Part shown: positions 1 through 57,602 of the stretch, piece by piece | How positions within the stretch are numbered: position 1 is the stretch's first letter | Layout of the letters: each line of letters begins with the position of its first letter | Assembly: GCA_041946735.1 (NCBI GenBank) | Contig: JBHGAY010000014.1 | Span: forward strand, 1 to 64,000 | From: Candidatus Eiseniibacteriota bacterium | GTDB lineage: Bacteria; Eisenbacteria; RBG-16-71-46; CAIMUX01; VGJL01 | Reading direction: 5' to 3' | Length of the DNA stretch: 64,000 nt | Translations under genes and position numbers: made by a program | Notes under the pieces: generated by a model | The model's input: the letters and a program-made list of their open reading frames with translations, nothing else | Told to the model about the DNA's origin: nothing | The model's database searches: none

Positions 1-66
1 CGCTCCGGCGCAAAGCGGCGCCGCCGCTCCGGCGCAAAGCAGCGCGCGCTCCGGCGCAAAGCAGCG
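1..66. repeat. Short direct repeat CGCTCCGGCGCAAAGC(A/G)GCG, 3 copies (may continue left of the window)
   Basis: Copies start at 1, 25 and 47, just downstream of the minus-strand HD-GYP gene. Confidence 0.8.
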
Positions 67-72
67 AGCGGC

Positions 73-8642: not shown

Positions 8643-10289
8643 ATGAGCCTCGCCCGCCGGCTCGAGGACGAAGTGGTCTCGTTCCTCAGGGCGACCCGAC
8701 GCGCGCCGGACCCCATCCCCGAGGCAGGGCCTCCGCCATGCCTGCTCGTCGCCGTCTCCGGGGGAGGCGATTCAACGGCTTTGCTGAAGCTTCTGCACGC
8801 GACCCGCTTGCGCCACGGCTTCGGGCTGATCGCCGCGCACGTCCATCACGGTGTGCGGCCGGACGCCGACGAAGAGGAGCGCCGGGTGGCCAGCCTCTGC
8901 GGCCGGCTCGAGATCCCGTTCGAGGTGGCACGGCTGGACCGCCGAGGGGGACGCCCGAGCCCTGGCGAAGCGACCCTGCGGGAGCTTCGCTACGCGGCGC
9001 TCCGGCGCATCGCTCGCGACCGCGGGTGCCGTGCCATCGTCCTCGGCCATCAGCGGGACGATCAGATCGAGACCGTGCTGATGGCGCTCATGCGCGGCAC
9101 GGGGATCGAGGGGATCGCCGGAATGCGTCGGCGGCGCGGCGACCTGCTGCGGCCGCTGCTCCACGTGCCGCGGTCGGTCTTGCGCGATTACCTGCGGGAG
9201 GCCGGCGAAGCTTGGGTCGAGGATCCGACGAACGAGGATCCGACCCGCGCTCGCAACCAGGTGCGCGCCCGCCTGCTCCCGCTGCTCGAGGATCTCCGGC
9301 CGGGATCGTCCGCGGCCGTCGCCCGCTCGGCCCGCGCGCTGGGCGACGCCCGCGCCGCCCTCCGGCGCCTCTCGGGGGAGGCGCTGGAGCGTCTGCGCAT
9401 GCCGGCGCGGGAAGGGACGATCGTGCTCGACGCGACGGCCCTCCGCCGCCAGCCGCGCGCCATCGTCCACCTGACCCTGAAGCGGGCAGCCGAGGAGACC
9501 CGCGCGGTCGCCGGCTGCTCCCGCACGGACATCCCCGCCTCCGCGTGGCGCGCCATCCTCCGCGCGGTCGCCAAAGGAAAGCCGGCCTCGTTCCGGCTCC
9601 CGGGGCCCATCGTCGTGGATGTCACGGGACGCGCGGTCCGGCTCTCCCCCGCTCACGCCGAAGCGGGCGCCGGGAAGGGCGATTTGACGGGCGGAACCTC
9701 CTCATCCGATCCGCCGTTCGTAGAGTTCGTGCTTCCCTGGTCGGGCGAGATCTCCGTCCCGCTCGAGGGCGGCCTGCCTGGCCGCCCGGGTTCCCCTTCC
9801 CTTTGCGAGAGCCGTCTGCGGGCCGAGCTGATGGACAGGCCGGCGGAATCGAAGTGGATTCTGCGCGGGACGACCCGCATGCAGATCTTCGACGCCGATG
9901 GGCTCGTTCCGCCGGTTCGGATGCGACCGATGCGTAGCGGGGACCGCGTGGCGGTCGAGTGGACCGGGCCGCCGCGCAGCCATGAGTCGCCGGCGGGGCG
10001 AACGTCGCCGGGAGGCAGAGGCGGGGACCGCCCGGAATGCGAGGATTCTTCGGCGTCCCGGAAGCTATCCGACTTATTATCGGAGCTGGGAGTGCCTCGA
10101 TCCGCTCGGCGCACGCAGCCGGTGATCGAAGATCGCGACGGAATCCTGTGGGCGCCTGGGGTTCGACGAAGCGCGCGGGCGCGGGTCGGGGGCGCCACCC
10201 GGAGGATCTGGGTCCTCCGGTGGAGCGGCCCGCTCCCGGTGGACGAGGCGTTGACCGGGGGAGGATCGCGACGATGGCCGAACGGGTGA
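8643..10289 (+). CDS. tilS: tRNA(Ile)-lysidine synthetase
   Basis: VAVSGGGDS PP-loop, HVHHGVR, GHQRDDQIET, RPLL, EDPTN, RNQVR and C-terminal RKLSDLL...VP. Confidence 0.95.
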   Translation: MSLARRLEDEVVSFLRATRRAPDPIPEAGPPPCLLVAVSGGGDSTALLKLLHATRLRHGFGLIAAHVHHGVRPDADEEERRVASLCGRLEIPFEVARLDRRGGRPSPGEATLRELRYAALRRIARDRGCRAIVLGHQRDDQIETVLMALMRGTGIEGIAGMRRRRGDLLRPLLHVPRSVLRDYLREAGEAWVEDPTNEDPTRARNQVRARLLPLLEDLRPGSSAAVARSARALGDARAALRRLSGEALERLRMPAREGTIVLDATALRRQPRAIVHLTLKRAAEETRAVAGCSRTDIPASAWRAILRAVAKGKPASFRLPGPIVVDVTGRAVRLSPAHAEAGAGKGDLTGGTSSSDPPFVEFVLPWSGEISVPLEGGLPGRPGSPSLCESRLRAELMDRPAESKWILRGTTRMQIFDADGLVPPVRMRPMRSGDRVAVEWTGPPRSHESPAGRTSPGGRGGDRPECEDSSASRKLSDLLSELGVPRSARRTQPVIEDRDGILWAPGVRRSARARVGGATRRIWVLRWSGPLPVDEALTGGGSRRWPNG

Positions 10290-18713: not shown

Positions 18714-18871
18714 GGGCGAATCCCTCCTTGGCACTCCCCGAAGATACCAGATGTTCGTTCGGTCAAGAAGGCCCGCTTCGGGAGGTCGCATCGACCCGAA
18801 GGGGGCGGGAAAGGGGCGCGAAGGGAGGCGGGAAAGTGGCGCGAAGGAGGCGCGAACGAGGCGCCGAGGAT

Positions 18872-39086: not shown

Positions 39087-39210
39087 CCGCGCCGGGAGCG
39101 GGGCGCGGGTCCGCTGGCCGCGCCCCGGCCCTTCGCCCCATGCGTCTCCCCTCCTGCCTTGCCCCCCCGAACCCGCCTGGGGTATCCTCCGTTCGTCCCG
39201 AGAAGAAACG

Positions 39211-40248
39211 ATGATCAGCACCCACCCACCGATCCTGCGGATTTCCCGGATCCATCAGCTCGTGCAGGCCCGGCGCTATCCGAACGTGACGTACCTGGCG
39301 CGGCAGCTCGAGGTGTCCCGGCGTACGGTGCAGCGCGACATCGAGTTCCTGCGGGACCAGCTGAAGGCCCCGATCGCCTTCAATCCGATCCAGAACGGCT
39401 TCGAGTACACAGAGGAAGGGTTCTCCCTTCCGGAGGTCCAGATGACGGAGGGAGAGGTGCTGGCCCTGATGGTCGCCGACAAGGCTCTGTCGGCGTATCA
39501 GGGAACAGCCTGCGAGGACCTGCTGCGGCAGCTTCTCGGCAAGGCGACGCTGGCCCTCGGGGAGAAGCTCACCATTTCTCCGGAAGAGGTCTCCCAGGCC
39601 TACTCCTTCCAGCACAGCTCGGCCCCCTCCCGCGTCGACGCGAAGGTCTTCGCGACGCTCGAGGCCGCGATCCGCGATCGCGAGACGGTGGAGATCGTCT
39701 ACTACACGCAGAGCCGCAGGCAGACATCCAAGCGCAGGATCGACCCCTATCATCTGGCCAACGTCGACGGGGATTGGTATCTCCTCGCGTTCTGCCACCT
39801 CCATCAGGAAGTCCGGACGTTCAAGCCGGCGCGCGTTCGCGCCGCCGAAAAGACCGGACTCTACTTCGTCCCCTCCCCCTTCGATCCGGCCGAGTTCCTG
39901 CGAACGAAGCTCCAGGCGATCGGCGGGGACAGGATCTTCGAGACGGTCGTCCGCTTCGAGCCGGCGCTCGCGGGTCACATCCTCGAACGGGACTGGGGCG
40001 AAGGGTATCGCGCACAGACGACGACCAACGGCGGCGTCGAGCTCTCGTTCCGCAGCGAAAACGCCGACGCGGTCATTCGCTGGTGCTTGAGCTGGGGTCC
40101 GGGAGCGGAAGTCGTCTCCCCCGCCTGGGTGCGACGGCGCGCCCGTGAGATCCTCCGCCGCATCGGCCGCGCTTACGAGAGCGCGGCGCGACCGGTCCGC
40201 TCGGCCGCCAGGAGGCGGCGCCCCCCGTCCCGCCCTCCATCCGCATAG
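39211..40248 (+). CDS. WYL-domain transcriptional regulator (HTH-WYL-WCX, PafB/C-like)
   Basis: LARQLEVSRRTVQRDI HTH, RRIDPYHL...WYLLAFCH...RTFKPARV and WCLSWG...EVVSP. Confidence 0.93.
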   Translation: MISTHPPILRISRIHQLVQARRYPNVTYLARQLEVSRRTVQRDIEFLRDQLKAPIAFNPIQNGFEYTEEGFSLPEVQMTEGEVLALMVADKALSAYQGTACEDLLRQLLGKATLALGEKLTISPEEVSQAYSFQHSSAPSRVDAKVFATLEAAIRDRETVEIVYYTQSRRQTSKRRIDPYHLANVDGDWYLLAFCHLHQEVRTFKPARVRAAEKTGLYFVPSPFDPAEFLRTKLQAIGGDRIFETVVRFEPALAGHILERDWGEGYRAQTTTNGGVELSFRSENADAVIRWCLSWGPGAEVVSPAWVRRRAREILRRIGRAYESAARPVRSAARRRRPPSRPPSA

Positions 40249-41264: not shown

Positions 41265-42677
41265 ATGCTCACCACACGTCCTCTCGCTATCGTGTTTCTC
41301 GTCGTTCCGCTTCTTCTGGCTGCCTTCACCGTCCCGGCCGGCGCCGGCAAGAACGATCCCGGCGAGCCCGATTGGCATTTCGACCTCGGCTGGCTCCGGT
41401 CGACGAGTCCGGAGGAAGAGCCCAACAACACGTGCGCGACTTCGCAGTCGATGTCGTGCGAGGACATGGCCGATCCCTGCAGCGTGCAGCCGGCAGGGGA
41501 TCTCGACTGGTTCTCGTTCTACGCGGCGCGAGGCGCACTGGTGACCATCGGAACGGACGAGGTGCCCGGCCAGCCGCTCGTCGATACTTGGATCGAGCTC
41601 TACGCGCCCGATTGCGTCACGCTCGTCAGCTACGACGACGACCACGGTCCCGGCAACTACTCGCTGATCTACACCTACCTGGTCCCGCAAAGTGGCATCT
41701 ACCACCTCAAGGTGCGCTCCCACGTATCGGGAGGGACCGGCGGCTACCGCCTCTTCGTCACGTGCGCGCCCCTGCCTATCGGAGCTTGCTGCCTCGCGGA
41801 CGGCTCGTGCGTGGCGATCCAGCAAGTCGATTGCGTCGCGCAAGGGGGCGAGTACCAGGGCAGCGGAACCGGGTGCCAGCCCAACCCGTGCCCTCAGCCG
41901 GTGCAGGCCTGCTGCCTCTCCGACGGATCCTGCCTGCTGCTGACCGGACCGTCGTGCGCGGAGATCGGGGGGACGCCTCTCGCTCCCGAGAGCGTGTGCG
42001 ACCCGAACCCGTGTCAGCAGCCTTCGGCCGCATGCTGCTTCGCTGATGGAACGTGCCGGCTTCTCGCGCCGGAGACATGCACCCAGCAGGACGGCCAGCC
42101 TCTTCCCGAGGGAAGTCTCTGCGACCCGAATCCCTGCCCTCAGCCCCCCCAAGCCTGCTGCTTCCTGGACGGCGGCTGCTCCATGGAGGTCGCTGAGAAC
42201 TGCGCGACGTTGGGCGGCTCCCCACAAGGACCGGGAACGACGTGCGAGGCGAACGACTGCCCGCAGCCCGCCCGCTCCTGCTGCTTCCCGGACGGAAGCT
42301 GCCAGATGCTCGGAACGAACGAGTGTGTCGCCGCCGGCGGAGAACTGGCGGGCACGACCGAGTGCGATCCGAACCCCTGCCCTCAGGCGTGCTGCTACGA
42401 GGACGCCCTCTGTCTCTTCCTGGCCGAAGCGGGCTGTACGGCCGGGGGCGGGACGCCTATGGGACCGGGGACCCTCTGCGATCCGAATCCGTGCCCCGAG
42501 CCGGTCGTGGGCGCCTGCTGCTTCGCGGGCCAGGTGTGCGAGCCGCTCCCCGAGCCGGACTGCGCCGACCAGGGCGGCATCTACCAGGGGGACGAGACCG
42601 CTTGCGACCCAAATCCTTGTCCCCCAACGCCAACCGAGGGAACGACCTGGGGTCGGATCAAGGGGCTGTTCCGATGA
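41265..42677 (+). CDS. Secreted protein: PPC-like domain, 7 Cys-rich repeats, C-terminal TWGRIKGLFR
   Basis: Signal peptide, EEEPNN...DWFSF...DDDHGPGNYSLI, and ACCxxDGxC...CxPNPC repeats. Confidence 0.88.
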   Translation: MLTTRPLAIVFLVVPLLLAAFTVPAGAGKNDPGEPDWHFDLGWLRSTSPEEEPNNTCATSQSMSCEDMADPCSVQPAGDLDWFSFYAARGALVTIGTDEVPGQPLVDTWIELYAPDCVTLVSYDDDHGPGNYSLIYTYLVPQSGIYHLKVRSHVSGGTGGYRLFVTCAPLPIGACCLADGSCVAIQQVDCVAQGGEYQGSGTGCQPNPCPQPVQACCLSDGSCLLLTGPSCAEIGGTPLAPESVCDPNPCQQPSAACCFADGTCRLLAPETCTQQDGQPLPEGSLCDPNPCPQPPQACCFLDGGCSMEVAENCATLGGSPQGPGTTCEANDCPQPARSCCFPDGSCQMLGTNECVAAGGELAGTTECDPNPCPQACCYEDALCLFLAEAGCTAGGGTPMGPGTLCDPNPCPEPVVGACCFAGQVCEPLPEPDCADQGGIYQGDETACDPNPCPPTPTEGTTWGRIKGLFR

Positions 42678-42834: not shown

Positions 42835-44667
42835 ATGCGCATAGCTAACGTGTTCCTGATCCTGTTCGTGTTCGGGTTCTGCCTTGGCAGCCCCGCTTGG
42901 GCGAAGGACACCGAGAAGATGGAGGAGCCGGAGTGGCACTACGATCTCTCCGGGATGGTTCGTAGCGTAGTGCCCGAGGTCGAGCCGAACGACGAATGCG
43001 GCGCCGGATCCCAGGCGATCACGTGCGGAGACGAGGTCAATCCTGCTCAGATCCTCCCCGCCGGAGAATTCGACTGGTTCGCCTTCCAGGCGAACGCGGG
43101 AGACGGCATCACCATCGGACTGGATGCCTCGGATCTCTGCGATCCGGACGTCAACGATACCTACATCTATCTGTACCGGGACGATTGCACCACGATCCTG
43201 GCCCAGGACGACGACTCGGGGCCGGGCTACTACTCGCAGATCACGAATTTCTCCGCGCCCTACACGGGCACCTACTACGTCAAGGTCAGGGGATACAGCG
43301 CCAGCTATGAGGGCTGCTACAAGATGTTCACCACCTGCGCTCCGCTTCCGACCGGCGCCTGCTGCCTGGCCGGCGGCGTCTGCGAGGTGATGACGCAAGG
43401 CGCCTGCACCACGGCCGGCGGGACTTACCAGGGCAACGACACGGTCTGCGAGCCGAACCCCTGCCCGCAGCCGCCTCCGAATGACCTCTGCTCCGGCGCC
43501 ATCGAGCTGCCCCGTTGCCAGAACGGTCTGATCTCGGCGACGACGATCGCAGCGGCCAACGACTACAACCCGGGCGATCCGGGGCCGAGCTGCACCGGCT
43601 ACAACGAGAACGCGAAGGACGTCACCTACTACATGAACCTCCTTGCGGGGGACACGGTGCACCTGGTCTACACGACACCCGCCTACGACGGCGCGATCTA
43701 CATCGTCACGGACTGCGAAAACGAGAGCGCGACATGCGTGGTGGGCGAGGACGATCCCGAGCCGGAGACGATCGACTGGACCGCGACGGCCGACGGGACG
43801 TACTTCGTCATCGCGGACGGCTTCTCGACGAACGGCGGCGGGGACTTCACGCTCGAGTGGTCGATCACCTGCCCGCCCCCCGCGCAGGCCTGCTGCTTCG
43901 TGGACGGCAGCTGCCAGATGCTGACCGCCGAGGTTTGCCTCGAGATGAGCGGGACTCCGCAGGGCGAAGGCTCTGTCTGCGAGCCGAACCCCTGTGAGAT
44001 TCCGCCGACCGCCTGCTGCTTCCCCGACGGCACCTGCCAGATGCTGCCGAGGGAGGAGTGCCTGAACCAGGGCGGCCAGCCTCTCAACGACGTCTGCGAT
44101 CCCAACCCCTGCGACCAGCCTCCGATGGCGTGCTGCTTCCCGGATGGCTCATGCCAGTTCACCCTCGAGGCGTATTGCATCGAGGCCGGTGGCGCGCCTC
44201 AGGGCTACGGCACCAACTGCGAGCCGAACCTCTGCGAGCAGCCCCCGGTCGCCTGCTGCTTCCCGGACGGCACCTGCGAGTTCGTGACCGCCGACATCTG
44301 CGTCCAGATGGGTGGAGCGCCCGGAGCGTACGGCACCGACTGCGAGCCCAACGACTGCCCGCAGCCGCCGGTCGCCTGCTGCTTCGCGGACGGCTCCTGC
44401 GAGTTCGTCCTTGCGGACGTCTGCACCCAGATGGGCGGGACGCCCGGACCGTACGGCACCGACTGCGAGCCCAACGACTGCCCGCAGCCGCCGGCGGAAG
44501 GGGCGTGCTGCTTCACGGGTCAGCTGTGCGAGGTCATGAGCTCCGAGGACTGCATTGCCGAGGGCGGCACCTACCAGGGTGACGACGTCTCGTGCGACCC
44601 GAATCCGTGCCCGCCGACGGCGACGAAGGACGCCACCTGGGGCCGGATCAAGGCCAACTACCGCTAG
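42835..44667 (+). CDS. Secreted protein: two PPC-like domains, 7 Cys-rich repeats, C-terminal TWGRIKANYR
   Basis: Signal peptide, EVEPND and DDDSGPGYYS. Paralogous to its neighbours. Confidence 0.9.
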   Translation: MRIANVFLILFVFGFCLGSPAWAKDTEKMEEPEWHYDLSGMVRSVVPEVEPNDECGAGSQAITCGDEVNPAQILPAGEFDWFAFQANAGDGITIGLDASDLCDPDVNDTYIYLYRDDCTTILAQDDDSGPGYYSQITNFSAPYTGTYYVKVRGYSASYEGCYKMFTTCAPLPTGACCLAGGVCEVMTQGACTTAGGTYQGNDTVCEPNPCPQPPPNDLCSGAIELPRCQNGLISATTIAAANDYNPGDPGPSCTGYNENAKDVTYYMNLLAGDTVHLVYTTPAYDGAIYIVTDCENESATCVVGEDDPEPETIDWTATADGTYFVIADGFSTNGGGDFTLEWSITCPPPAQACCFVDGSCQMLTAEVCLEMSGTPQGEGSVCEPNPCEIPPTACCFPDGTCQMLPREECLNQGGQPLNDVCDPNPCDQPPMACCFPDGSCQFTLEAYCIEAGGAPQGYGTNCEPNLCEQPPVACCFPDGTCEFVTADICVQMGGAPGAYGTDCEPNDCPQPPVACCFADGSCEFVLADVCTQMGGTPGPYGTDCEPNDCPQPPAEGACCFTGQLCEVMSSEDCIAEGGTYQGDDVSCDPNPCPPTATKDATWGRIKANYR

Positions 44668-44728: not shown

Positions 44729-44947
44729 CCCATGATGCGTAGGGCGCTCACGCCAGGTTCGATCACTGACCACGCTTGTCCATTGCAGCGAGAGATGACG
44801 CACCGAACAGCGATGTCGGAGAGTGAGGGCGGAGACCCATCGGCGGCGGGGACGGGGGACGAGGAGCGTCTACCTAAGATCCTGCCCACGAACGGCTTGC
44901 CGCCGGAAGATTCTTTCGCGTCTGAAGTGGTCAAAGACTGATCGTTC

Positions 44948-44976
44948 TTTACAGAAGGGCCGATTCAGAGTAAAAT
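44948..44976 (+). promoter_or_regulatory. Near-consensus sigma70 promoter (TTTACA-N17-TAAAAT)
   Basis: Lies in an AT-rich patch 90 nt upstream of the ATG at 45066. Confidence 0.7.
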
Positions 44977-45065
44977 ACGATTTGCCTGTGAACCATGTCC
45001 CTGCTTGGGATCTGGTCGCGCAGGAGACTTCTGCTAGCAGAAACAGCACTTGCACGGAGGTTCAC

Positions 45066-46136
45066 ATGCGTCTTGTTCTAGCTTTGGTCCTTACGACGAT
45101 GCTCTGTAGCGGCCTCGCCTTCGCTGCCCCCGGCAACGAGGATCCGAAGCCCTGGTCGTACGACACCTCTTGGGCTCGTTCCGAGTATCCCGAGCAGGAG
45201 CCGAACGACACGTGTCCGGGTCAGGCTACGGCGTGCGGTGACGTCGTCACCCCGGCGTACCTCGACGCCGGCAACGAGGATTGGTACTCGTTCACGGTGA
45301 ACGCGGGTGACGCCATCACGGTCGGGACCCAAGAGGTCAACCCTGGCGACTACGCCGACACCTACATCGAGCTCTACTTCGAGTGCGGTGGCACGATCCT
45401 CGCGGAGGATGACGACAGCGGCCCGAGCACCTACTCGCTCATTCAGGAGTGGATCGCTCCGCAGACCGGCACCTACAACCTGAAGGTTCGCGGGTTCAGC
45501 GCGAGCTCCTACGGCCCCTACGAGGTCTTCTTCCAGTGCGGCCAGGTCGTCCTCCCCGAGGGCGATCAGTGCGACACCGCGACGGAGATCACCTGTGGGA
45601 CGGGGACGCTCAATGGCGACCTGACGACCTACCACAACGACTACAACCCGTACGCGGACGGGTACAGCTGCACCGGGTACAACGCGAACGACAAGGACGT
45701 GGTCTTCATCCTCAACATGAACGAGGGCGACAGCATCGACCTCACCTACACGACGCCGAGCTATGACGGATCGATGTACATCATCACCGATTGCGCCGAC
45801 GCGGCTCACAGTTGCGTGATCGGCGAGGACGATCCGGAGCCCGAGCACATCGCTTGGACGGCCACGGCCACCGGCACCTACTACCTGATCCTCGACGGCT
45901 ACTCGGCTGGCGCTGGCGGACCCTGGACTCTCGACTACATCTTCGATTGCGTCACGCCGCCGACCGAGGGGGCTTGCTGCTTCCCCGACGGTAGCTGCGC
46001 CATGCTGCTCCCCGACGATTGCACCCTCAACGGTGGCGATCCTCAGGGCGAGGGCACGACGTGCGAGAGCGTCGAGTGCGAGATCGTGGCGACCCAGGAC
46101 GCGACCTGGGGCCAGATCAAGGCGACCTATCGCTAG
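45066..46136 (+). CDS. Secreted protein: two PPC-like domains, 1 Cys-rich repeat, C-terminal TWGQIKATYR
   Basis: GGAGG RBS, signal peptide MRLVLALVLTTMLCSGLAFA, EQEPND and EDDDSGPSTYS. Confidence 0.9.
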   Translation: MRLVLALVLTTMLCSGLAFAAPGNEDPKPWSYDTSWARSEYPEQEPNDTCPGQATACGDVVTPAYLDAGNEDWYSFTVNAGDAITVGTQEVNPGDYADTYIELYFECGGTILAEDDDSGPSTYSLIQEWIAPQTGTYNLKVRGFSASSYGPYEVFFQCGQVVLPEGDQCDTATEITCGTGTLNGDLTTYHNDYNPYADGYSCTGYNANDKDVVFILNMNEGDSIDLTYTTPSYDGSMYIITDCADAAHSCVIGEDDPEPEHIAWTATATGTYYLILDGYSAGAGGPWTLDYIFDCVTPPTEGACCFPDGSCAMLLPDDCTLNGGDPQGEGTTCESVECEIVATQDATWGQIKATYR

Positions 46137-46160
46137 CATCGAAGCCGTAAGTCTCTGAGA

Positions 46161-46191
46161 AGAGGCCCCGCCCGCAAGGGCGGGGTCTTTT
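46161..46191 (+). terminator. Rho-independent terminator
   Basis: AGAGGCCCCGCCC-GCAA-GGGCGGGGTCTTTT. Confidence 0.85.
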
Positions 46192-46223
46192 CGTTCGGCC
46201 TGGAACCCGCAGAAACGAGCCGA

Positions 46224-46739
46224 AGGGAGCCATCTTCGGAGGATCGAGCAGGAGAACCCCTAAGGGGAGAGTCTCCACCGGGTGCTTCGCGATGAAGAAC
46301 CCCAAGCGGGAGACTCTCGGTTCGGATGTTCACCCTCGCGAACTGGCCTCGCCAGACTCTCGGGCCGAGGCTTCACGTCGGTGAAGGCCTCGCAGGAGAC
46401 TCTCGAGTCGGATGTTCACACCCGGCAACTCGAGACCCGAGATTCTCGGAACGTGGCTTCACGATCGGGAAGGGGCCGGCCGAGAATCTCCGTGCCCCAG
46501 TTCGCATCGGGAGAGATAGGGTCCGAGACTCTCCGCCTACCCCTTCACCGAGTGCAACTCCCCCACGGGACTTCTCGATTCGCAGGTTCACAGCCTCGAA
46601 CCTCCCGGGTCGAAGTCTCTGATCGGCTCTTCACGCCAGTGAACCGGAGGGGCCAGAACCGGGACTCGGTGCTTCACGCCTGTGAACGGGTCTGCCTGGA
46701 CGCTGGGCTCGGGTCTTCGCCTTGGTGAAGCTGCCCGCT
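46224..46739. repeat. Non-coding array with exact 43-bp period: GAGAnTCTC-N10-TTCRC-N4-(GTG)AA-N10, 11 clear units plus 1 degenerate
   Basis: TTC(A/G)C occurs at 46286, 46329, 46372, 46415, 46458, 46501, 46544, 46587, 46630, 46673 and 46716 (every step +43). The TCTC box is in phase in 9 units. Confidence 0.92.
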
Positions 46740-46804
46740 CGGGCTCCGACGGGCGGTTCAGCGCAATCGAATGCGGCGGAGGCTCGGCGGAGACTCAATT
46801 GAGC

Positions 46805-46840
46805 GACGGCGACCGCCCTCCCTGGAGGACGATCGCCGTC
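46805..46840 (-). terminator. Long hairpin downstream of the aminopeptidase gene
   Basis: GACGGCGACCGCCCTCC-CT-GGAGGACGATCGCCGTC. Its two mismatches become G-U pairs on the minus strand. Confidence 0.55.
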
Positions 46841-46876
46841 GACGATCCGGCCGGTCGACTCAGGAACGGTTCGCCA

Positions 46877-49666
46877 TCACCGGACGACGACCAGCCGTCG
46901 GACGCGCCGCTCGCCATCCGCCTGCAGCCGGCTCCAGTAGACCCCCGCCGGGACGTCGTGACCCAGGCCGTCCTTGCCGTCCCAGCGGATCGCGTGCGAT
47001 CCGGCGGCGAGCGGCTGGTCGAGGAGCTCGCGGACCAGGCGCCCGGAGACGTCGACGATCGTCAGCTCCACCGATCCGGCGCGTGGCAGCGCGAACGAGA
47101 GCTGCATCGCGCCGGACGCGGGGTTCGGCCGCGCGGGCGAGAAGGTCAGGGTGCGCGGGAGCGCCTCCGCCTCTTCCGTCCCCGCCGGATCGATCGGCTC
47201 CTCGAAGAAGGTCTCGAGCACGTGCACCATGTTCTGGCGCAGGGAGGCGTGCTCCCAGCGATACGGCCGTCCGCTCAGGAAGACGAACTGCGCTCCGTCG
47301 GGACGGTACATCCCGCCGCCGGCCGGCTTGCGCCAGACGCCGATCCCGCGATCCGGGTTGATGTACTGCTGCGCCTGGTAGATCACGCGGCTGTCGGGCT
47401 GCGAGAGGGTGAGGTTGAAGAGCGAGCAGTAGTTCTGGGTGCCCAGTCGGACGATGTTGGTCAGTCCGGGATAGCTCGCGATGCAGTCGTAGATCGTGCT
47501 GCCGGATTCCCAGGTGATCCCGAGATACGCGCGCTCCTGCTCCGTCAGGTAGTCCTGGCCCATGCGGGTGAGCAGCAGGACGTTGCCGCCCGCCTCCAGG
47601 TAGGGAACGATCGGCGTCGATCTCCACGAGCCGAGGTCGCCGTTGTAGTTGCTGGCGACCCAGACGACGTTGCGGTAGCGGCCGAGAACGTCGGGCGGAA
47701 TCGCTCCGCTGCCGATCGGATCGGGCAGGGTCGAGGGATAGCCGCCGGCCGGCTCCGGGAAGAGGTCCCAGAAGTCGATCACGTAGTCGCCCGTGAACGC
47801 CCGATCCTGGTAGGCGCTCGCGATCTCGTCGCCGTAGGAAGTCCAGTCGACCGCGTTGACGAGGAGCACGCCGCGATCGAACGGCGGATCGTAGATCGGC
47901 TCCGTGACCGTCTTCAGGATCCAGTCGCCCTCGTCGATCCGAACCGATCGGGGCTCGTCCGTCACATGGAAGAGGTAGTCCTGCGTGGCCAGGCTGTTCT
48001 CCACGACGAAGGTCTGCTCCCCGTTTGCCATATGGATCGTCACGTCGACCGGCATCCGGAAGATCTGCCAGGTCTGGGTCTGGTCGATCGTGAGGGCGAC
48101 GTCCCAGCCGCCGCCGCCCGGCGTGAACGTGTAGGAGAGGGAGTACTCCGGGTAGTACTCCCCGTAGATCCACTCCTGGAAGAACCAGTCGAGATCCCGC
48201 CCGGAGACCTGCTCGCAGACGTCCCGGAATTTCTCGGTCGTGGCGACCGAGTAGCGGTACGTCTGGTAGTAGGCGCGCAGGGAGGCGAAGAAATCCTCCT
48301 CGCCAAGGACGTGCCGCAGCATGTGGAGGACCCAGGAGCCTTTGTTGTAGGAGAGGTTCGAATCGAAGATCCGGCCCCAGTCGTTCAGGTCGGGGACGTA
48401 GATCGATCCAGGCCCGAAGTACTTGTTGCCGTCGATGTCCTGGCGGTATCCGTCGGGACCGTAGGCCACTTCGGAGTACAGGGCTTCGCAATAGGTGGCG
48501 AAGCCCTCGTTGAGCCAGACGTGGTGGAAGTCCTCGCAGGTGATCATGTCGCCCCACCACTGATGCGCCAGCTCGTGCGCGACCACCCACTCGCCGAAGT
48601 AGCCGAGGCTGGTGCAGGTCTGGTGCTCCATCCCGCCGCCCCACGGGAACTCGGCGTGCCCGTACTTCTCTCCCTGGAACGGGTAGGCGCCGAAGATGCC
48701 GGAGTAGATCCCGATCATGTCCTTCACCTTCGCGTTGACGGCGGCGTTCTCCTGCACGTCGTCCGGGTACATGAAGAACTTGATCTCGAGGGAGTCGGAC
48801 GGGCTCGCGTGGTACCAGTCCGAGTAGACGGCGAAGGGGTGGACGGCGAGGGAGACCAGGTACGTGCTGATCGGGAACCCTTCATGCCAGCGCGCCACCG
48901 AGGTGATCCCGTTGTCGCTCTGCTCCCGAAGCTCGCCGTTGGAGGCGGTGATCAGCCCGGTCGGCGCCGTGACGCGCACGTTGACGGAGTCGGCCTTGTC
49001 GTCCGACCAGTCCTTGCTCGGCCACCAGGTCCGTCCGCCGAACGGCTCGCTCAGGGTCCAGATCATCGGCTGGCCGAGATGGGTATCCCAGCCCCAGGCG
49101 TCCCCTTGCGGATTGCCGTTGTAGAGCACCCGCACCTCGACCGTCTCGCCGGTCTGGTAGGCGCGGTCGAGCGTCACCGTCAGGACGTCCCCGATGTGGC
49201 TGAAGGTCGCGGCATGGCCGCCGGCCTGCGATCCCGTCACCGTCATGTTGGCGGCGAGATCGAGATCGAAGGTCGCCAGCGGGCCGGACAGCACCCGGGC
49301 GCGGGTCAGGACGTTGCCGGTCAGGACGTGGGCCACCGGGTCGAGGTTCAGGTCGAGATCGTAGAAGAGCGCGTCGTAGGCGAGCTGGTTGGGAGTCGTG
49401 CGGCCGCGCGCCAGCGAGGCGATACGTTCGCTCCTTTCGGCCATCGCGGCCTTGTGGAAGGCGAGGTACGGAGCCGTGTCGCGAGGGTCCATCATGCGGC
49501 CCACCCACCCGGCGGCCGTCGAGGGAAAGAGCACCGGCCCGCTTTCGTCCGCCCGGGCAGGAGCCGGAAGGAGGACGGACAGCAGGAGCGCCGGCAGGGC
49601 GAGCAGAGCGAGCGGGAAGAGAGCGAGCGGGAAGGACGGCGAGAGGGACCGCGGGGAGCGCCGCAT
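46877..49666 (-). CDS. Secreted M1 family aminopeptidase with C-terminal FlgD-Ig (T9SS-CTD-like) domain
   Basis: Signal peptide, GGMEH, HELAHQWWGD...WLNEGFATY and SYNKG. C-terminal PNP...DVSGRLVR...WDGKD...GVY. Confidence 0.93.
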   Translation of the reverse strand: MRRSPRSLSPSFPLALFPLALLALPALLLSVLLPAPARADESGPVLFPSTAAGWVGRMMDPRDTAPYLAFHKAAMAERSERIASLARGRTTPNQLAYDALFYDLDLNLDPVAHVLTGNVLTRARVLSGPLATFDLDLAANMTVTGSQAGGHAATFSHIGDVLTVTLDRAYQTGETVEVRVLYNGNPQGDAWGWDTHLGQPMIWTLSEPFGGRTWWPSKDWSDDKADSVNVRVTAPTGLITASNGELREQSDNGITSVARWHEGFPISTYLVSLAVHPFAVYSDWYHASPSDSLEIKFFMYPDDVQENAAVNAKVKDMIGIYSGIFGAYPFQGEKYGHAEFPWGGGMEHQTCTSLGYFGEWVVAHELAHQWWGDMITCEDFHHVWLNEGFATYCEALYSEVAYGPDGYRQDIDGNKYFGPGSIYVPDLNDWGRIFDSNLSYNKGSWVLHMLRHVLGEEDFFASLRAYYQTYRYSVATTEKFRDVCEQVSGRDLDWFFQEWIYGEYYPEYSLSYTFTPGGGGWDVALTIDQTQTWQIFRMPVDVTIHMANGEQTFVVENSLATQDYLFHVTDEPRSVRIDEGDWILKTVTEPIYDPPFDRGVLLVNAVDWTSYGDEIASAYQDRAFTGDYVIDFWDLFPEPAGGYPSTLPDPIGSGAIPPDVLGRYRNVVWVASNYNGDLGSWRSTPIVPYLEAGGNVLLLTRMGQDYLTEQERAYLGITWESGSTIYDCIASYPGLTNIVRLGTQNYCSLFNLTLSQPDSRVIYQAQQYINPDRGIGVWRKPAGGGMYRPDGAQFVFLSGRPYRWEHASLRQNMVHVLETFFEEPIDPAGTEEAEALPRTLTFSPARPNPASGAMQLSFALPRAGSVELTIVDVSGRLVRELLDQPLAAGSHAIRWDGKDGLGHDVPAGVYWSRLQADGERRVRRLVVVR

Positions 49667-49946
49667 GGAAGATCCTCCAAGGTGTCGGACATCGCGGCCC
49701 GCCCGCGTCGGGGCGCGCGAGCCACGGCTGCTTGCGAAGGACCGCGGCGCAGGCGGAAGAGCCCGCTGCGACCGCGGCCGGGAGACGATACCGGATGATT
49801 GTACCATGGGGAGGGCGGCCCTCCGTGGGCGCGTGTGTGTGCGTGTCGGGCGGTTGTCGGGTGGAAATCGGGGGGGGCCGAGGTGCGGGCCGCGCAAAGC
49901 CGTCCCGAGGAGACCCCGGGACGGCTCGACGGCACGGCGGATAGAG

Positions 49947-54989: not shown

Positions 54990-57146
54990 CTACCGGAAGG
55001 TCGCCTTCACCTTGCCCCACGAGGTCTTCTCGGTGGCCACGTAGGCGCAAGGCGTGTTGCCCTCGTTGTCCGGCTCGCAGTTCGTCCCATCGCCGATGTA
55101 GTTCTCGGGATGGTTCGGATCGATCGCGAGGCAGCCTTCCAGGGTGAGGACCTGGCAGGTCCCGTTGCCCGGGCAGCACGCGCCGAAGCAGCTGGTCGCC
55201 GGATCGCAGACCGTCTGGTCCTCGTGATACGTCCCGCTGACCGCGCCGCAGTCGTCGGGCGAGTTCACGAGGAGGCAGGTGCCGTCCGCAAGGCAGCAGA
55301 CCCGCGGCTGCGGGCAAGGATTCGGATCGCACAGGGTGCCGCCGCCTTGGAAGACGCCGCCACCGGTCGTGCACTCCTCCTCCGTCGCCGCGATCGTGCA
55401 GCTTCCGTCCGCCGCGCAGCAGGCGCCTTCCGGCACCGGCGTGCACGGATTCGGATCGCAGACCGTGTCGGGACCCTGGAAGGTGCCGCCCGCGGTCTGG
55501 CAATCCGCGAAGTTGGACAGCGTGCAATCGCCGTTGTCCGCGCAGCACGCTCCGGTGCCGCAAGGAACCGGATCGCAGACCGTCCCGGCGCCGAGGAACG
55601 TGCCGGCGCAGTCGGCCGCGAGCACGTAGGTGCAGGCGTTGTTCTCGGCGCAGCACGCGCCGTACTCGCCGCACGGCGTGGGATCGCAGACACCGCCCTC
55701 GACCCAACCTCCGGCGAGCGTCGTGCAGTACGCCTCGGTGTAGACCGCGCAGGTGCCGTCGGGCAGACAGCAGGCTCCGGTGCCCGGACACGGATCCGGA
55801 TCGCAAGACGTTCCCGCGCCCTGGAAGACGCCGTGCTGCGTGTTGCAGTCGGTCTCGCTCAGCAGCTGGCAGCTCCCGTCGGGCAGGCAGCAAGCGTACT
55901 CAGGCTGATCGCAGTCGTTCGGATCGCACACCGTGTCGGCGCCCTGCCACTCGCCCTGCTGGCTGGCGCACTGCTCTTCCGTCCGGAGGATGCAGTTGCC
56001 GTTCGCCAAGCAGCACGCTCCCGTCGGAGGCTGCGGGCACTCGACCGTATCGCAGGTCGTCCCGGCGCCCTGGAACGTTCCACCGGCCGCCGTGCAGGCC
56101 GCTTCATCCGGATAGACCGTGCACGATCCGTTCGGGAAGCAGCAGGCTCCGTTCTGGTTCACGCAAGGGTTGGGTTCGCAGTCCGTCCCCTCGCCCAGCC
56201 ACTGCTGGTCGAACGACTCGCAAGCGTACTGGGTCTGGATCGAGCAGAGGCCGCCCTGCGTGCAGCAGGCGCCGGTCGGCGGCTGCGGGCACTCCACCTG
56301 ATCGCAGCTCGACGGGTAGCCCTGGAACACGCCTTCGAGAGCCGCGCAGTCGACGATGTTCACCGTCTGGCACTGGCCGGTGGCGGGAACGCAGCAGGCC
56401 GCGGTGCAGGGGTTCGGGTCGCAAACGGTGCCCGGGCCCTGCGGAGTTCCGTTCTGCGTGAGGCAGTCCGCGGCGAGGATCAACTGGCACGAACCGTCGC
56501 TCAAGCAGCACGCTTCGTTCTCCGCGACGGGGCACTCGTTGTATCCCTGGTCGGAGAACCAGTAGACGCGTCCGAACTTGGTCACCAGATCCTCGATCGG
56601 CGGCACGCTGTCGTCGGCGAACTTGGCGTTGCCGTAGCGGGGATCGACGTTGGCGCCGAAGTAGGAGTTCGCATCCACTCCATACGCGGCGAACCAGTAG
56701 AACGGGAAGAGGGTGGTGGTCATCGACTGTCCCTCTGTCAGGGACCAGAAGTTTCCCGAGGGAGAGGTGTCGGGGAACCCAGGTTGCGGAAGCTCCAATG
56801 CGCTCGGCGGACAGGCATCGAACGCCTCGATGTATCCCTGTCCCTGAGGCAGGTTGTGCTCGACACCGAACTGGATGCCCGCCACCACGGGCTCCGCGGT
56901 CGGCACGAACGCGGCGAGGAACCAGATCACCGCAGCGTGATTGACGTCCACATCGCTGCGAACTCCGGCCACCTCGCAACTAGCCGGTTTGTTGGCCTCA
57001 TAGACCGTGCCGCAGTAGTCCTGGCCTACGGAATAGGCCAGGGTCGGGTTCGTGTGGACGATGAGAGCCCCGTTGGCATTCTTGCCAGCCCACGCGGGAC
57101 ACGTGGCGAGGGCAAGAAGCCCCAGAGCCAGTAGAAGCCTTTTCAT
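54990..57146 (-). CDS. Secreted protein: unknown N-terminal domain, 12 Cys-rich repeats, C-terminal SWGKVKATFR
   Basis: GGAGG RBS, signal peptide MKRLLLALGLLALATCPAWA and GACCxxxGxC repeats. Confidence 0.9.
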   Translation of the reverse strand: MKRLLLALGLLALATCPAWAGKNANGALIVHTNPTLAYSVGQDYCGTVYEANKPASCEVAGVRSDVDVNHAAVIWFLAAFVPTAEPVVAGIQFGVEHNLPQGQGYIEAFDACPPSALELPQPGFPDTSPSGNFWSLTEGQSMTTTLFPFYWFAAYGVDANSYFGANVDPRYGNAKFADDSVPPIEDLVTKFGRVYWFSDQGYNECPVAENEACCLSDGSCQLILAADCLTQNGTPQGPGTVCDPNPCTAACCVPATGQCQTVNIVDCAALEGVFQGYPSSCDQVECPQPPTGACCTQGGLCSIQTQYACESFDQQWLGEGTDCEPNPCVNQNGACCFPNGSCTVYPDEAACTAAGGTFQGAGTTCDTVECPQPPTGACCLANGNCILRTEEQCASQQGEWQGADTVCDPNDCDQPEYACCLPDGSCQLLSETDCNTQHGVFQGAGTSCDPDPCPGTGACCLPDGTCAVYTEAYCTTLAGGWVEGGVCDPTPCGEYGACCAENNACTYVLAADCAGTFLGAGTVCDPVPCGTGACCADNGDCTLSNFADCQTAGGTFQGPDTVCDPNPCTPVPEGACCAADGSCTIAATEEECTTGGGVFQGGGTLCDPNPCPQPRVCCLADGTCLLVNSPDDCGAVSGTYHEDQTVCDPATSCFGACCPGNGTCQVLTLEGCLAIDPNHPENYIGDGTNCEPDNEGNTPCAYVATEKTSWGKVKATFR

Positions 57147-57545
57147 GAGTACTCGACCTCCCTTGACGACCGGACTCGGCTCCCGAGCCGACAACCTAGA
57201 CCGAAACCGTGCCCGCCCCTTTCGACACGGAGCCAACTGCCGGAATCCTCCGTCCTTGATCCGGCCCACGCGGCCGCTTTCCGGCGAAGCTATTCTAGCC
57301 CGATGAGTTGCGGTGTTCAGCCGTGAAAAGTTCCGGCTGCCTTGCTCTCCTCGAGCCTCGAATCGTGGGCGGACCTTCGAGGACCTGATCCATTGGGCTC
57401 CCCCAAAGGAGTCCCGGCTGAAATGTAATGCCTGCGCGGGAACGGCGCCACAGAACTTCCTGTCACCCGGACGGACCCGAGGGACCGGATGCGCGCGAAT
57501 TGGGCGCCGGGAAGGATCGTGGCCGTGCGCGAACGTTCGAGTGGG

Positions 57546-57602
57546 AAGCGGGACGGGGCCGCCCATGCGACGCCCGTCCCGCTTGCAATGCCCGTCCCGC
57601 TT
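57546..57602. terminator. Hairpin with a duplicated right arm, downstream of the BNR-repeat gene
   Basis: AAGCGGGACGGG can pair with CCCGTCCCGCTT at either 57573 or 57591. Confidence 0.5.

Follow-up and report, generated by a model that had tools for sequence, protein, structure and literature searches.

Features of the locus

We analysed a tandem array of eleven 43-bp units in a 64,000-nucleotide stretch of DNA from a Candidatus Eiseniibacteriota bacterium (contig JBHGAY010000014.1, positions 1 to 64,000; hereafter the window). The array sits between two convergent genes, 44823-46136 on the plus strand and 46877-49897 on the minus strand. An initial annotation, made from the letters of the window, had described this setting together with a bounding terminator and a hairpin, and both were found again, at 46159-46192 and 46804-46841. 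The features of the locus are as follows, T9SS standing for type IX secretion system:

44823-46136, plus strand: left flanking gene, encoding a secreted protein that has a PPC domain, a repeat rich in Cys and the tail TWGQIKATYR
46159-46192, plus strand: intrinsic terminator of the upstream plus-strand gene, with a T run and 15-nt arms that are 87% complementary
46220-46239, minus strand: terminator-like hairpin at the left end of the array, a 6-pair stem followed by a T-rich tail
46224-46266: possible degenerate leading unit, overlapping the minus-strand hairpin
46267-46739: eleven units, each of box A (9 bp), slot A (10 bp), box B (5+4+5 bp) and slot B (10 bp), defined by register and per-segment identity
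46740-46796: decayed right edge, with TTCAG 2 bp off register and a box-A-like GAGACTC about 7 bp off
46804-46841: hairpin after the stop codon of the M1 peptidase gene, with 18-nt arms that are 89% complementary and without a T run on the minus strand
46877-49897, minus strand: right flanking gene, an M1-family peptidase with a FlgD_ig / Por_Secre_tail C-terminal domain (T9SS-type)

The units follow the register 46267 + 43k with zero indels, which confirms the exact period stated in the initial annotation both by cutting the sequence in register and by its identity at successive lags. Among lags of 1-139, self-identity exceeded 0.36 just at 43 (0.447), 86 (0.454) and 129 (0.431). Tandem Repeats Finder (TRF) picked up the best-kept part alone, at 46309-46419 (period 43) and 46309-46473 (period 86). 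All eleven units carry the motif TTC[A/G]C in columns 20-24 and 9/11 have TCTC in columns 6-9, with GAGAnTCTC perfect in units 1, 2 and 4-7 and the left half changed to CAGA in unit 3. The two box consensuses, GAGAnTCTC for box A and TTCRC-n4-GTGAA for box B, are palindromic and their dyads lie 21.5 bp apart, as had been proposed.

A search of this genome with the box pattern, allowing at most one mismatch, gave 8 forward and 8 reverse matches and 0 with the pattern written backwards as a control, while strict box B occurs nine times in 4.9 Mb, 7/9 of them inside the window array and a sister array described below. The array pattern is thus beyond chance. A sequence-only covariance model (R1) detected 9/11 units of the window on the plus strand and missed units 6 and 7. 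The degenerate unit proposed at 46224 is in register and agrees with the consensus in 21 of 43 letters, but it was not detected by R1. Pieces of the array with 0 or 1 differing letter are present at low depth in contigs of four DNA runs (X3, X4, X5 and X7), which confirms the sequence but shows only the same strain elsewhere; none of the RNA runs searched for the stretch contains the array.

A coding function was rejected. Since 43 is not a multiple of 3 and the codon-position G+C filter accepts no open reading frame (ORF) that covers the array, a constraint acting on DNA or RNA, as the initial annotation had placed it, agrees with our results. The four ORFs across the array had 0 Pfam matches.

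Conservation within the array

Mean pairwise identity between the units is 0.91 for TTCRC, 0.65 for box A and 0.62 for the 3' half of box B. Slot B (0.338, where its composition alone predicts 0.345) and the loop of box B (0.291 vs 0.282 expected) are at the random level, and slot A reaches 0.405 vs 0.304 expected. All 22 ten-mers differ, as noted in the initial annotation, but slot A retains a consensus. Eight A-A slot pairs share at least 7/10 letters, out of 12 such pairs overall (null 6.9 +/- 3.2), and the two slots are not reverse complements of each other. The highly conserved columns are clustered (4, 7, 8, 20-22, 24, 32 and 33). G+C amounts to 9/19 in the consensus of the boxes, 74% in the free columns and 68% in the genome.

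The between-column variance was 0.067, compared with 0.038 +/- 0.009 in coalescent simulations matched for mean identity, and was reached in 2/1000 of them, under a simple null (equal rates, coalescent tree) and with boxes defined from the same data. No indel is seen across 473 bp despite saturated free columns. The ratio of indels to substitutions is roughly 1 in 10 to 1 in 20, so that tens of indels would be expected under neutrality, a rough estimate and not a computed figure. Equal-rate neutral decay does not fit the array, and the view that a fixed unit length combined with sequence divergence points to constraint is supported by the column variance and by the lack of an indel in eleven units.

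A sister array in the same genome

The array is not the orphan that it had been taken for, since homologous units are present elsewhere in the genome. Both a profile of the eleven units and R1 place its family (F7) on two further contigs, C55 and C43, in addition to the contig of the window (C6):

C55:10399-10560 (contig end): four sister units
C43:1-172 (contig start): four sister units
C43:603-688: two degenerate sister units

R1 gave 21 matches in the genome, 20 of which lie in the two F7 loci. The sister array has the same 9+10+14+10 layout; it breaks the assembly, and the unit counts are those of the contigs as assembled. Pairwise identity outside the boxes is 0.69 in the sister vs 0.36 in the window, and the two ten-mers of the sister are nearly unchanged from unit to unit. 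By these identities, the sister array is the younger of the two. The near-identity of its ten-mers implies that the variable segments of the window array are a diverged repeat and not acquired spacers.

Each F7 locus lies 3' of a minus-strand gene that has a T9SS-type tail, and the relative orientation is the same at both. They share no common flanks, as blastn returned unit-to-unit matches and matches in the coding sequence of the C-terminal domain alone. The hairpins after the two T9SS-tail genes (window 46804-46841 and C55 at about 9960-10000) look alike by eye, both reading GGCGAYCG...CGGTCGCC followed by ATTGAG; they may represent a common terminator or a small family of repeats.

Two elements cut the sister array, a multi-copy insertion sequence and a truncated IS256-like transposase fragment. 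The insertion sequence has inverted ends starting TGAACCGCCCCGGG, presumably of the IS3-family type, and closes at least seven contig ends. It is found at C6:130683-130732, at the ends of C39, C48 and C55, at the starts of C9, C53 and C31, and at C43:166-600. A derivation of box B from abutted insertion-sequence ends was considered and dismissed: the end TGAACC... is present in 7 copies and coincides in about 4-5 letters, which we took as chance.

Arrays of 42-43 bp across the genome

In a whole-genome TRF analysis, the window array was one of 12 loci with a period of 42 (7 loci) or 43 (5 loci). The histogram of periods peaks at 42-43, with zero loci at 38-41 and 44 and two at 45. Period-42/43 arrays lie at the following positions:

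C11:45057-45463
C5:115775-116202
C19:1-312
C7:129935-130073
C46:4367-4552
C16:15563-15784
C7:17962-18103
C12:107715-107862
C4:136026-136246
C14:94359-94504
C15:39346-39428
C21:71457-71549

These arrays form at least seven unrelated families. Likeness between the families is at shuffle level in any rotation and on either strand, compared with z values of 7-16 for consensus likeness within a family. By the codon-position filter they are intergenic, except for C16, where the array reaches into the beginning of a single stop-to-stop frame accepted by the filter, and several break the assembly at contig ends. FlgD_ig/T9SS-type-tail genes, of which the genome has at least 150, immediately adjoin 7 of 13 loci (arrays or pieces of them at contig ends). 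An arrangement of two palindromes at a distance of 21.5 bp was seen in F7 and in family F2 only, and in most of the array families the dyad scores of the consensus were no better than those of shuffles.

The window array shares the traits of this class, namely an exact 43-bp period, an intergenic position and a unit sequence private to its locus, and it belongs to an unexplained class of 42-43-bp arrays in this genome. The genome further contains eleven short arrays whose period, 22 bp, is half of 43-44, whereas the periods 20, 23, 25, 26 and 28 are represented by 1-6 loci. The 22-bp arrays (window 1-70 and 18797-18864, C71:13812-13929, C71:19867-19998 and others) look mutually unrelated.

A helical protein family linked to the arrays

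Two proteins encoded beside arrays of different families are paralogues, and the genome contains eight such genes:

C11:45715-46479
C15:39910
C65:4473
C7:18998
C40:7562
C21:70460
C24:7467
C27:52696

A 42- or 43-bp array lies within about 1 kb upstream of 4/8 of them; the array linked to the gene at C21 has a period of 43, as in the window. Within the order, the family is found in 11/35 genomes, with up to 12 copies and several genes at contig starts, and an array is often located 80-320 bp upstream of the gene. When 26 loci of relatives were retrieved, an array of period 42 or 83 bp, unrelated in sequence, closely preceded the gene at 10 of them, and at most one had an array downstream of the gene or overlapping its end. 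One relative's array (G015) consists of 16 units of exactly 42 bp with zero indels.

The protein has about 230 amino acids and is predicted to be all-helical with two helices of about 55 residues (AlphaFold pLDDT 92.4, pTM 0.78). It had no Pfam match and no match to a sequence in the PDB, and structure comparison returned generic helical bundles alone (best Foldseek E 0.09; VIA Z 10.3, which is below the meaningful level for helical bundles). No recognisable DNA- or RNA-binding fold and no Nop-like match were seen in these searches. Its relatives in the databases are all annotated as hypothetical and include proteins of Myxococcota and Acidobacteriota; five unrelated genomes of these two phyla contained no member. 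The 236-aa protein encoded after the C46 array was rejected as a member of the family (hhalign probability 0.04%).

The gene-linked arrays have no significant k-mer in common. The best 5-mer was present in 7/11 arrays, which equals the shuffle maximum of 7, and ACGCGT was present in 4/11 vs a shuffle maximum of 5, so that the class rests on period and position. No family gene adjoins the F7 loci and no F7-like unit lies near the paralogues, which leaves three options for the window array: it is an independent member of the minisatellite class, a relic that has lost its gene, or the trans site of a paralogue without an array of its own.

Neighbouring genes

The left flanking gene is one of four paralogous genes for secreted proteins in the window (41265-42677, 42835-44667 and 44823-46136 on the plus strand, 54990-57566 on the minus strand). 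Each of the four proteins combines a domain of the PPC type with Cys-rich repeats in tandem (ACCFPDGSC...C.PNPCP), and all have a common C-terminal tail, TWG.IKA.YR. About 6 kb upstream of the array, an ORF at 39159-40248 on the plus strand encodes, as judged by eye, an N-terminal helix-turn-helix and a WYL-like motif; it is a putative PafBC/BrxR-type regulator.

Readings at the RNA level

The array could act as RNA, for example as the minus-strand 3' untranslated region of the M1 peptidase mRNA ended by the hairpin at 46239-46220, and would then act as a sponge for protein or be processed into RNAs of unit length. The hairpin, exactly at the left end of the array, would stop any minus-strand transcript crossing it, and read-through is conceivable because the hairpin that follows the stop codon of the peptidase gene lacks a T run. 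The location of both F7 loci 3' of minus-strand T9SS-tail genes, in one orientation, is consistent with this, as is the occurrence of TTCGC with GTGAA (a plus-strand G-U pair of columns 23 and 30) three times and of the reciprocal variant 0 times. However, the RNAalifold consensus fold had an energy of 0.0 in all 43 rotations on both strands. No covariation was detected either: 81.9% of the palindrome cells pair vs 81.2% in shuffles, 184/500 shuffles reach the observed value, and a double change was found at one column pair only. GAGAnTCTC cannot form a hairpin of its own, as only 1 nt would be left for the loop, and the boxes are strand-symmetric. No sigma-70-like promoter was found at the array locus, and the best Rfam match over it had an E value of 0.015 and 17.9 bits vs a gathering score of 88. 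We consider an element acting as RNA very unlikely.

The initial annotation had also pointed to a likeness to TIGR arrays. According to Faure et al. (2025; PMC12045711), TIGR repeats of 8-12 nt have UG at the start and CCA at the end, alternate with hypervariable 9-12-nt spacers and adjoin a gene for a Nop-domain Tas protein; the part of a preprint by Xu et al. (2026; 10.64898/2026.09.09.750476) that concerns one stem-loop system gives a 5-bp stem between spacers. Like TIGR arrays, which have about 5-15 units, the window array has two short alternating repeats, fixed stretches of about 10 nt and a terminator at one end. Its layout of repeat, 10 nt, repeat, 10 nt gives a unit length that fits the published ranges, and the 5-bp stem reported in the preprint points the same way. 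A dual-spacer guide-RNA array with its Tas protein encoded elsewhere has nevertheless little in its favour beyond this layout. The boxes contain no UG/CCA motifs (box C/D) on either strand, the ends of the slots are not conserved, and box B, with 14 nt, is outside the 8-12 nt range; the boxes are palindromic and strand-symmetric, unlike TIGR repeats. Slot A is conserved and not hypervariable, and the slots of the sister are nearly identical between units. Paired slots had 0 targets in the genome at 0-1 mismatch, and the 9 targets at 2 mismatches compare with 9-15 in three shuffled controls, so that matches of paired ten-mers to self sequence did not rise above shuffles. The genome, which is an estimated 94.8% complete, had 0 matches to Nop (PF01798) at E values up to 1 and no IS110-type gene (PF01548), and no Nop-domain gene is present among the neighbours of the array, which encode the PPC-domain secreted protein and the M1 peptidase. 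A reading as a TIGR-like guide array is largely refuted, and we assign a TIGR-type array a next to negligible probability.

CRISPR repeats have about 23-50 nt and alternate with spacers of similar size next to cas genes. A period of 43 bp is too short for such an array, and a partial Rfam match of 17 bits to CRISPR-DR9 in the terminator is due to chance. A probable CRISPR array is present at C17:76818-78714 (contig end), with 37-nt repeats, a period of about 74 bp and eight Rfam matches to CRISPR-DR16 of 26.4 bits, below the gathering score of 35.

A possible phased platform and its rivals

Among the three options of the initial annotation, namely a guide-like or structured RNA array, a phased protein-binding platform and a BIME/REP-like element, the platform is the best fit as far as sequence can tell. 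We tentatively favour, as possible although by no means probable, a phased row of double-stranded DNA sites for a sequence-specific and probably oligomerising protein that works or recently worked. The recognition segment would span about 33 bp, comprising GAGAnTCTC, a semi-conserved 10 bp and TTCRC-n4-GnGAA, and would be followed by a 10-bp linker of free sequence and fixed length. With 21.5 bp between dyads and 43 bp between units, about two and four helical turns, all sites would come to lie on one face of the helix, and the spacing may have been selected for this phasing. The symmetric occurrence of the boxes on both strands suits dimeric DNA binders and not an RNA. If the array is read by a protein, the only candidate binder would be a trans-acting paralogue from the helical family whose genes adjoin other arrays of the class.

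A precedent is sopC of plasmid F, with 12 directly repeated 43-bp units in each of which SopB binds an inverted repeat (PMC3177203); this inverted repeat has 16 bp. The window array resembles sopC in its 43-bp period, in a similar copy number and in an inverted-repeat motif within an otherwise dispensable unit sequence, and the presumed common logic is that of phased sites for a dimeric DNA binder. Unlike sopC, it is chromosomal and in a convergent-gene context, has two different boxes per unit and units diverged to saturation, and has no adjoining sopA/sopB or parA/parB (genes of the ParA type were not searched for genome-wide). Plasmid iterons, which are Rep-binding repeats of about 17-22 bp with a period of roughly 22 bp, are a further parallel. 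They likewise combine a conserved site with a short free linker in a period of whole helical turns, with about 21-22 bp between sites, whereas the window array lies in no rep gene or origin context and alternates two palindromic boxes instead of one direct repeat. A putative likeness of box B to parS half-sites carrying an insert of 4 bp, and to a Rex operator in inverted order, was considered but found no support. A role of box A in methylation or restriction, suggested by the GANTC that it contains, was rejected, as GANTC is not avoided in the genome (observed/expected 1.30).

Several observations weigh against a binding platform. The palindromes annotated for the boxes hold for the consensus and are imperfect in individual units: 5/11 have a perfect 3' half of box B, and this half is often lost; the simplicity of the null behind the column variance has been stated above. 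No binding protein was found, no DNA-binding gene flanks the window array or its sister, and the two ParB_N genes of the genome lie on other contigs, C56 and C28. Composite half-sites were not enriched outside the arrays, with 61 matches at a spacing of N10 compared with 60 (N7) and 66 (N13) in controls at the other codon-phase spacings, and there is thus no regulon. The sister tolerates two interruptions by insertion-sequence material. Moreover, the family was not recovered elsewhere. The pattern with at most one mismatch had one chance match in 60 relatives, and R1 gave scattered single matches with E >= 0.002 in 34 relatives of the order. In a collection of genome contigs, the exact box pattern gave 51 single matches and none in tandem; rescanned with the unit profile, these loci showed overlapping opposite-strand matches or matches more than 1 kb apart. 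A two-unit pattern matched once in metagenome contigs, in a sequence that looks coding by eye and has no tandem units by profile, and a one-unit pattern had four single matches in viral contigs without tandem structure. On these searches, F7 appears to be a lineage- or species-specific family. Finally, tandem repeats of period >=20 are abundant in this genome (163 loci, on average about 27 in 800 kb). This makes a mutational origin without function plausible, and an 800-kb sample of a relative from the same family (G004) contained no 42-43-bp array and 5 tandem-repeat loci of period >=20.

The same observations bear on a functionless or selfish minisatellite, that is, on a lineage prone to 42-43-bp duplications in which the window copy is the oldest. 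Its boxes would have been kept by mutational or gene-conversion bias at quasi-palindromes, or would be needed by the mechanism of amplification. The spread of the 12 period-42/43 loci over at least seven families with no detectable mutual similarity, the excess of tandem repeats over the relative, the species-specificity of the array, the cutting of the sister by insertion sequences and the decay of the array edges all agree with this. Indels do happen at the right edge, since its motifs have shifted from the register by 2 and 7 bp. The nearest described analogue, BrickBuilt, is, according to PMC4596501, a 23-nt minisatellite inside a Porphyromonas gingivalis MITE (miniature inverted-repeat transposable element), species-specific, intergenic and multi-copy. 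The window array is likewise a species-specific, strictly intergenic tandem array at several loci, and the BrickBuilt host belongs to the same superphylum and also has type IX secretion. In contrast to the 23-nt BrickBuilt units, which have no variable parts and lie within common inverted-repeat ends, the units here have 43 bp and free linkers. The two F7 loci without common flanks have no MITE-like leader or tail with inverted-repeat ends, and a MITE-borne minisatellite of the BrickBuilt type was rejected on this ground. What further speaks against a functionless minisatellite is that no indel has entered 473 bp while the free columns became random, that column variance exceeds the equal-rate null, and that the boxes, richer in AT, have persisted although the background is rich in G+C, contrary to the mutational drift that one would expect. 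We regard it as rather unlikely.

The array could also be a relic or a trans-acting member of a cassette made up of an array and a helical protein gene downstream of it, having lost its gene or serving a paralogue encoded elsewhere. The arrays upstream of 4/8 paralogues and of 10/26 loci in relatives, with at most one downstream or overlapping, argue for such cassettes, as do the patchy and multi-copy distribution of the family, the period of 43 at C21 and the relative G004, which has no helical-family gene and no such arrays in its 800-kb sample. On the other hand, neither a family member nor a remnant lies beside the window array (C6) or the sister (C55 and C43), R1 finds 0 F7-like units in 12 loci near other paralogues or arrays, the gene-linked arrays have no significant k-mer in common, and the protein has no recognisable DNA- or RNA-binding fold. 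For the window array, membership in a cassette is distinctly unlikely. In the wider form of this view, the window array would be an ancient member of an undescribed Eisenbacteria array-protein system, in which each intergenic, locus-private array with a period fixed at 42-43 bp is read by its own paralogue of the helical-hairpin protein of about 230 aa, mostly from a gene directly downstream, and selection on the register and the two boxes has outlasted the complete turnover of the linkers. This we consider unlikely.

Repetitive extragenic palindromes (REP) and bacterial interspersed mosaic elements (BIME) of Enterobacteria and Pseudomonas are extragenic, species-specific elements with a palindromic consensus at hundreds of loci, often located 3' of genes and between convergent ones, and some form tandem clusters to which architectural proteins bind. 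The part of the initial annotation that likened the array to them holds only loosely, in so far as it is extragenic, 3' of convergent genes, species-specific, palindromic in the consensus and tandem. It fails in that F7 has two loci instead of hundreds, a strict 43-bp register and units of the same instead of alternating orientation, and a RAYT/Y1 transposase (PF01797) had 0 matches in the genome at E values up to 1. A REP/BIME element was rejected for these reasons, and the earlier statement that neither a Nop-domain Tas nor a RAYT gene is present, made for the window, extends to the genome.

Implications

Intergenic arrays of bacteria that have been kept in exact register for so long are rare, and the understood cases (centromeres, iterons, CRISPR and TIGR) have each revealed a dedicated protein machine. 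In the window array, the spacing and two short boxes have outlived the remaining sequence. The class of arrays and its link to an uncharacterised protein family are a more promising lead than the single locus. If no binder exists, the arrays would identify a lineage with an unusual, length-specific propensity for minisatellites. If a binder exists, they would provide a natural set of cognate pairs of sites and proteins and a handle on the organisation of the chromosome or of expression in a phylum without a cultured member. Should the array-protein system prove true, it would be a new and possibly mobile module of a cognate DNA (or RNA) array and its binder, without a counterpart among CRISPR, TIGR, REP and partition systems.

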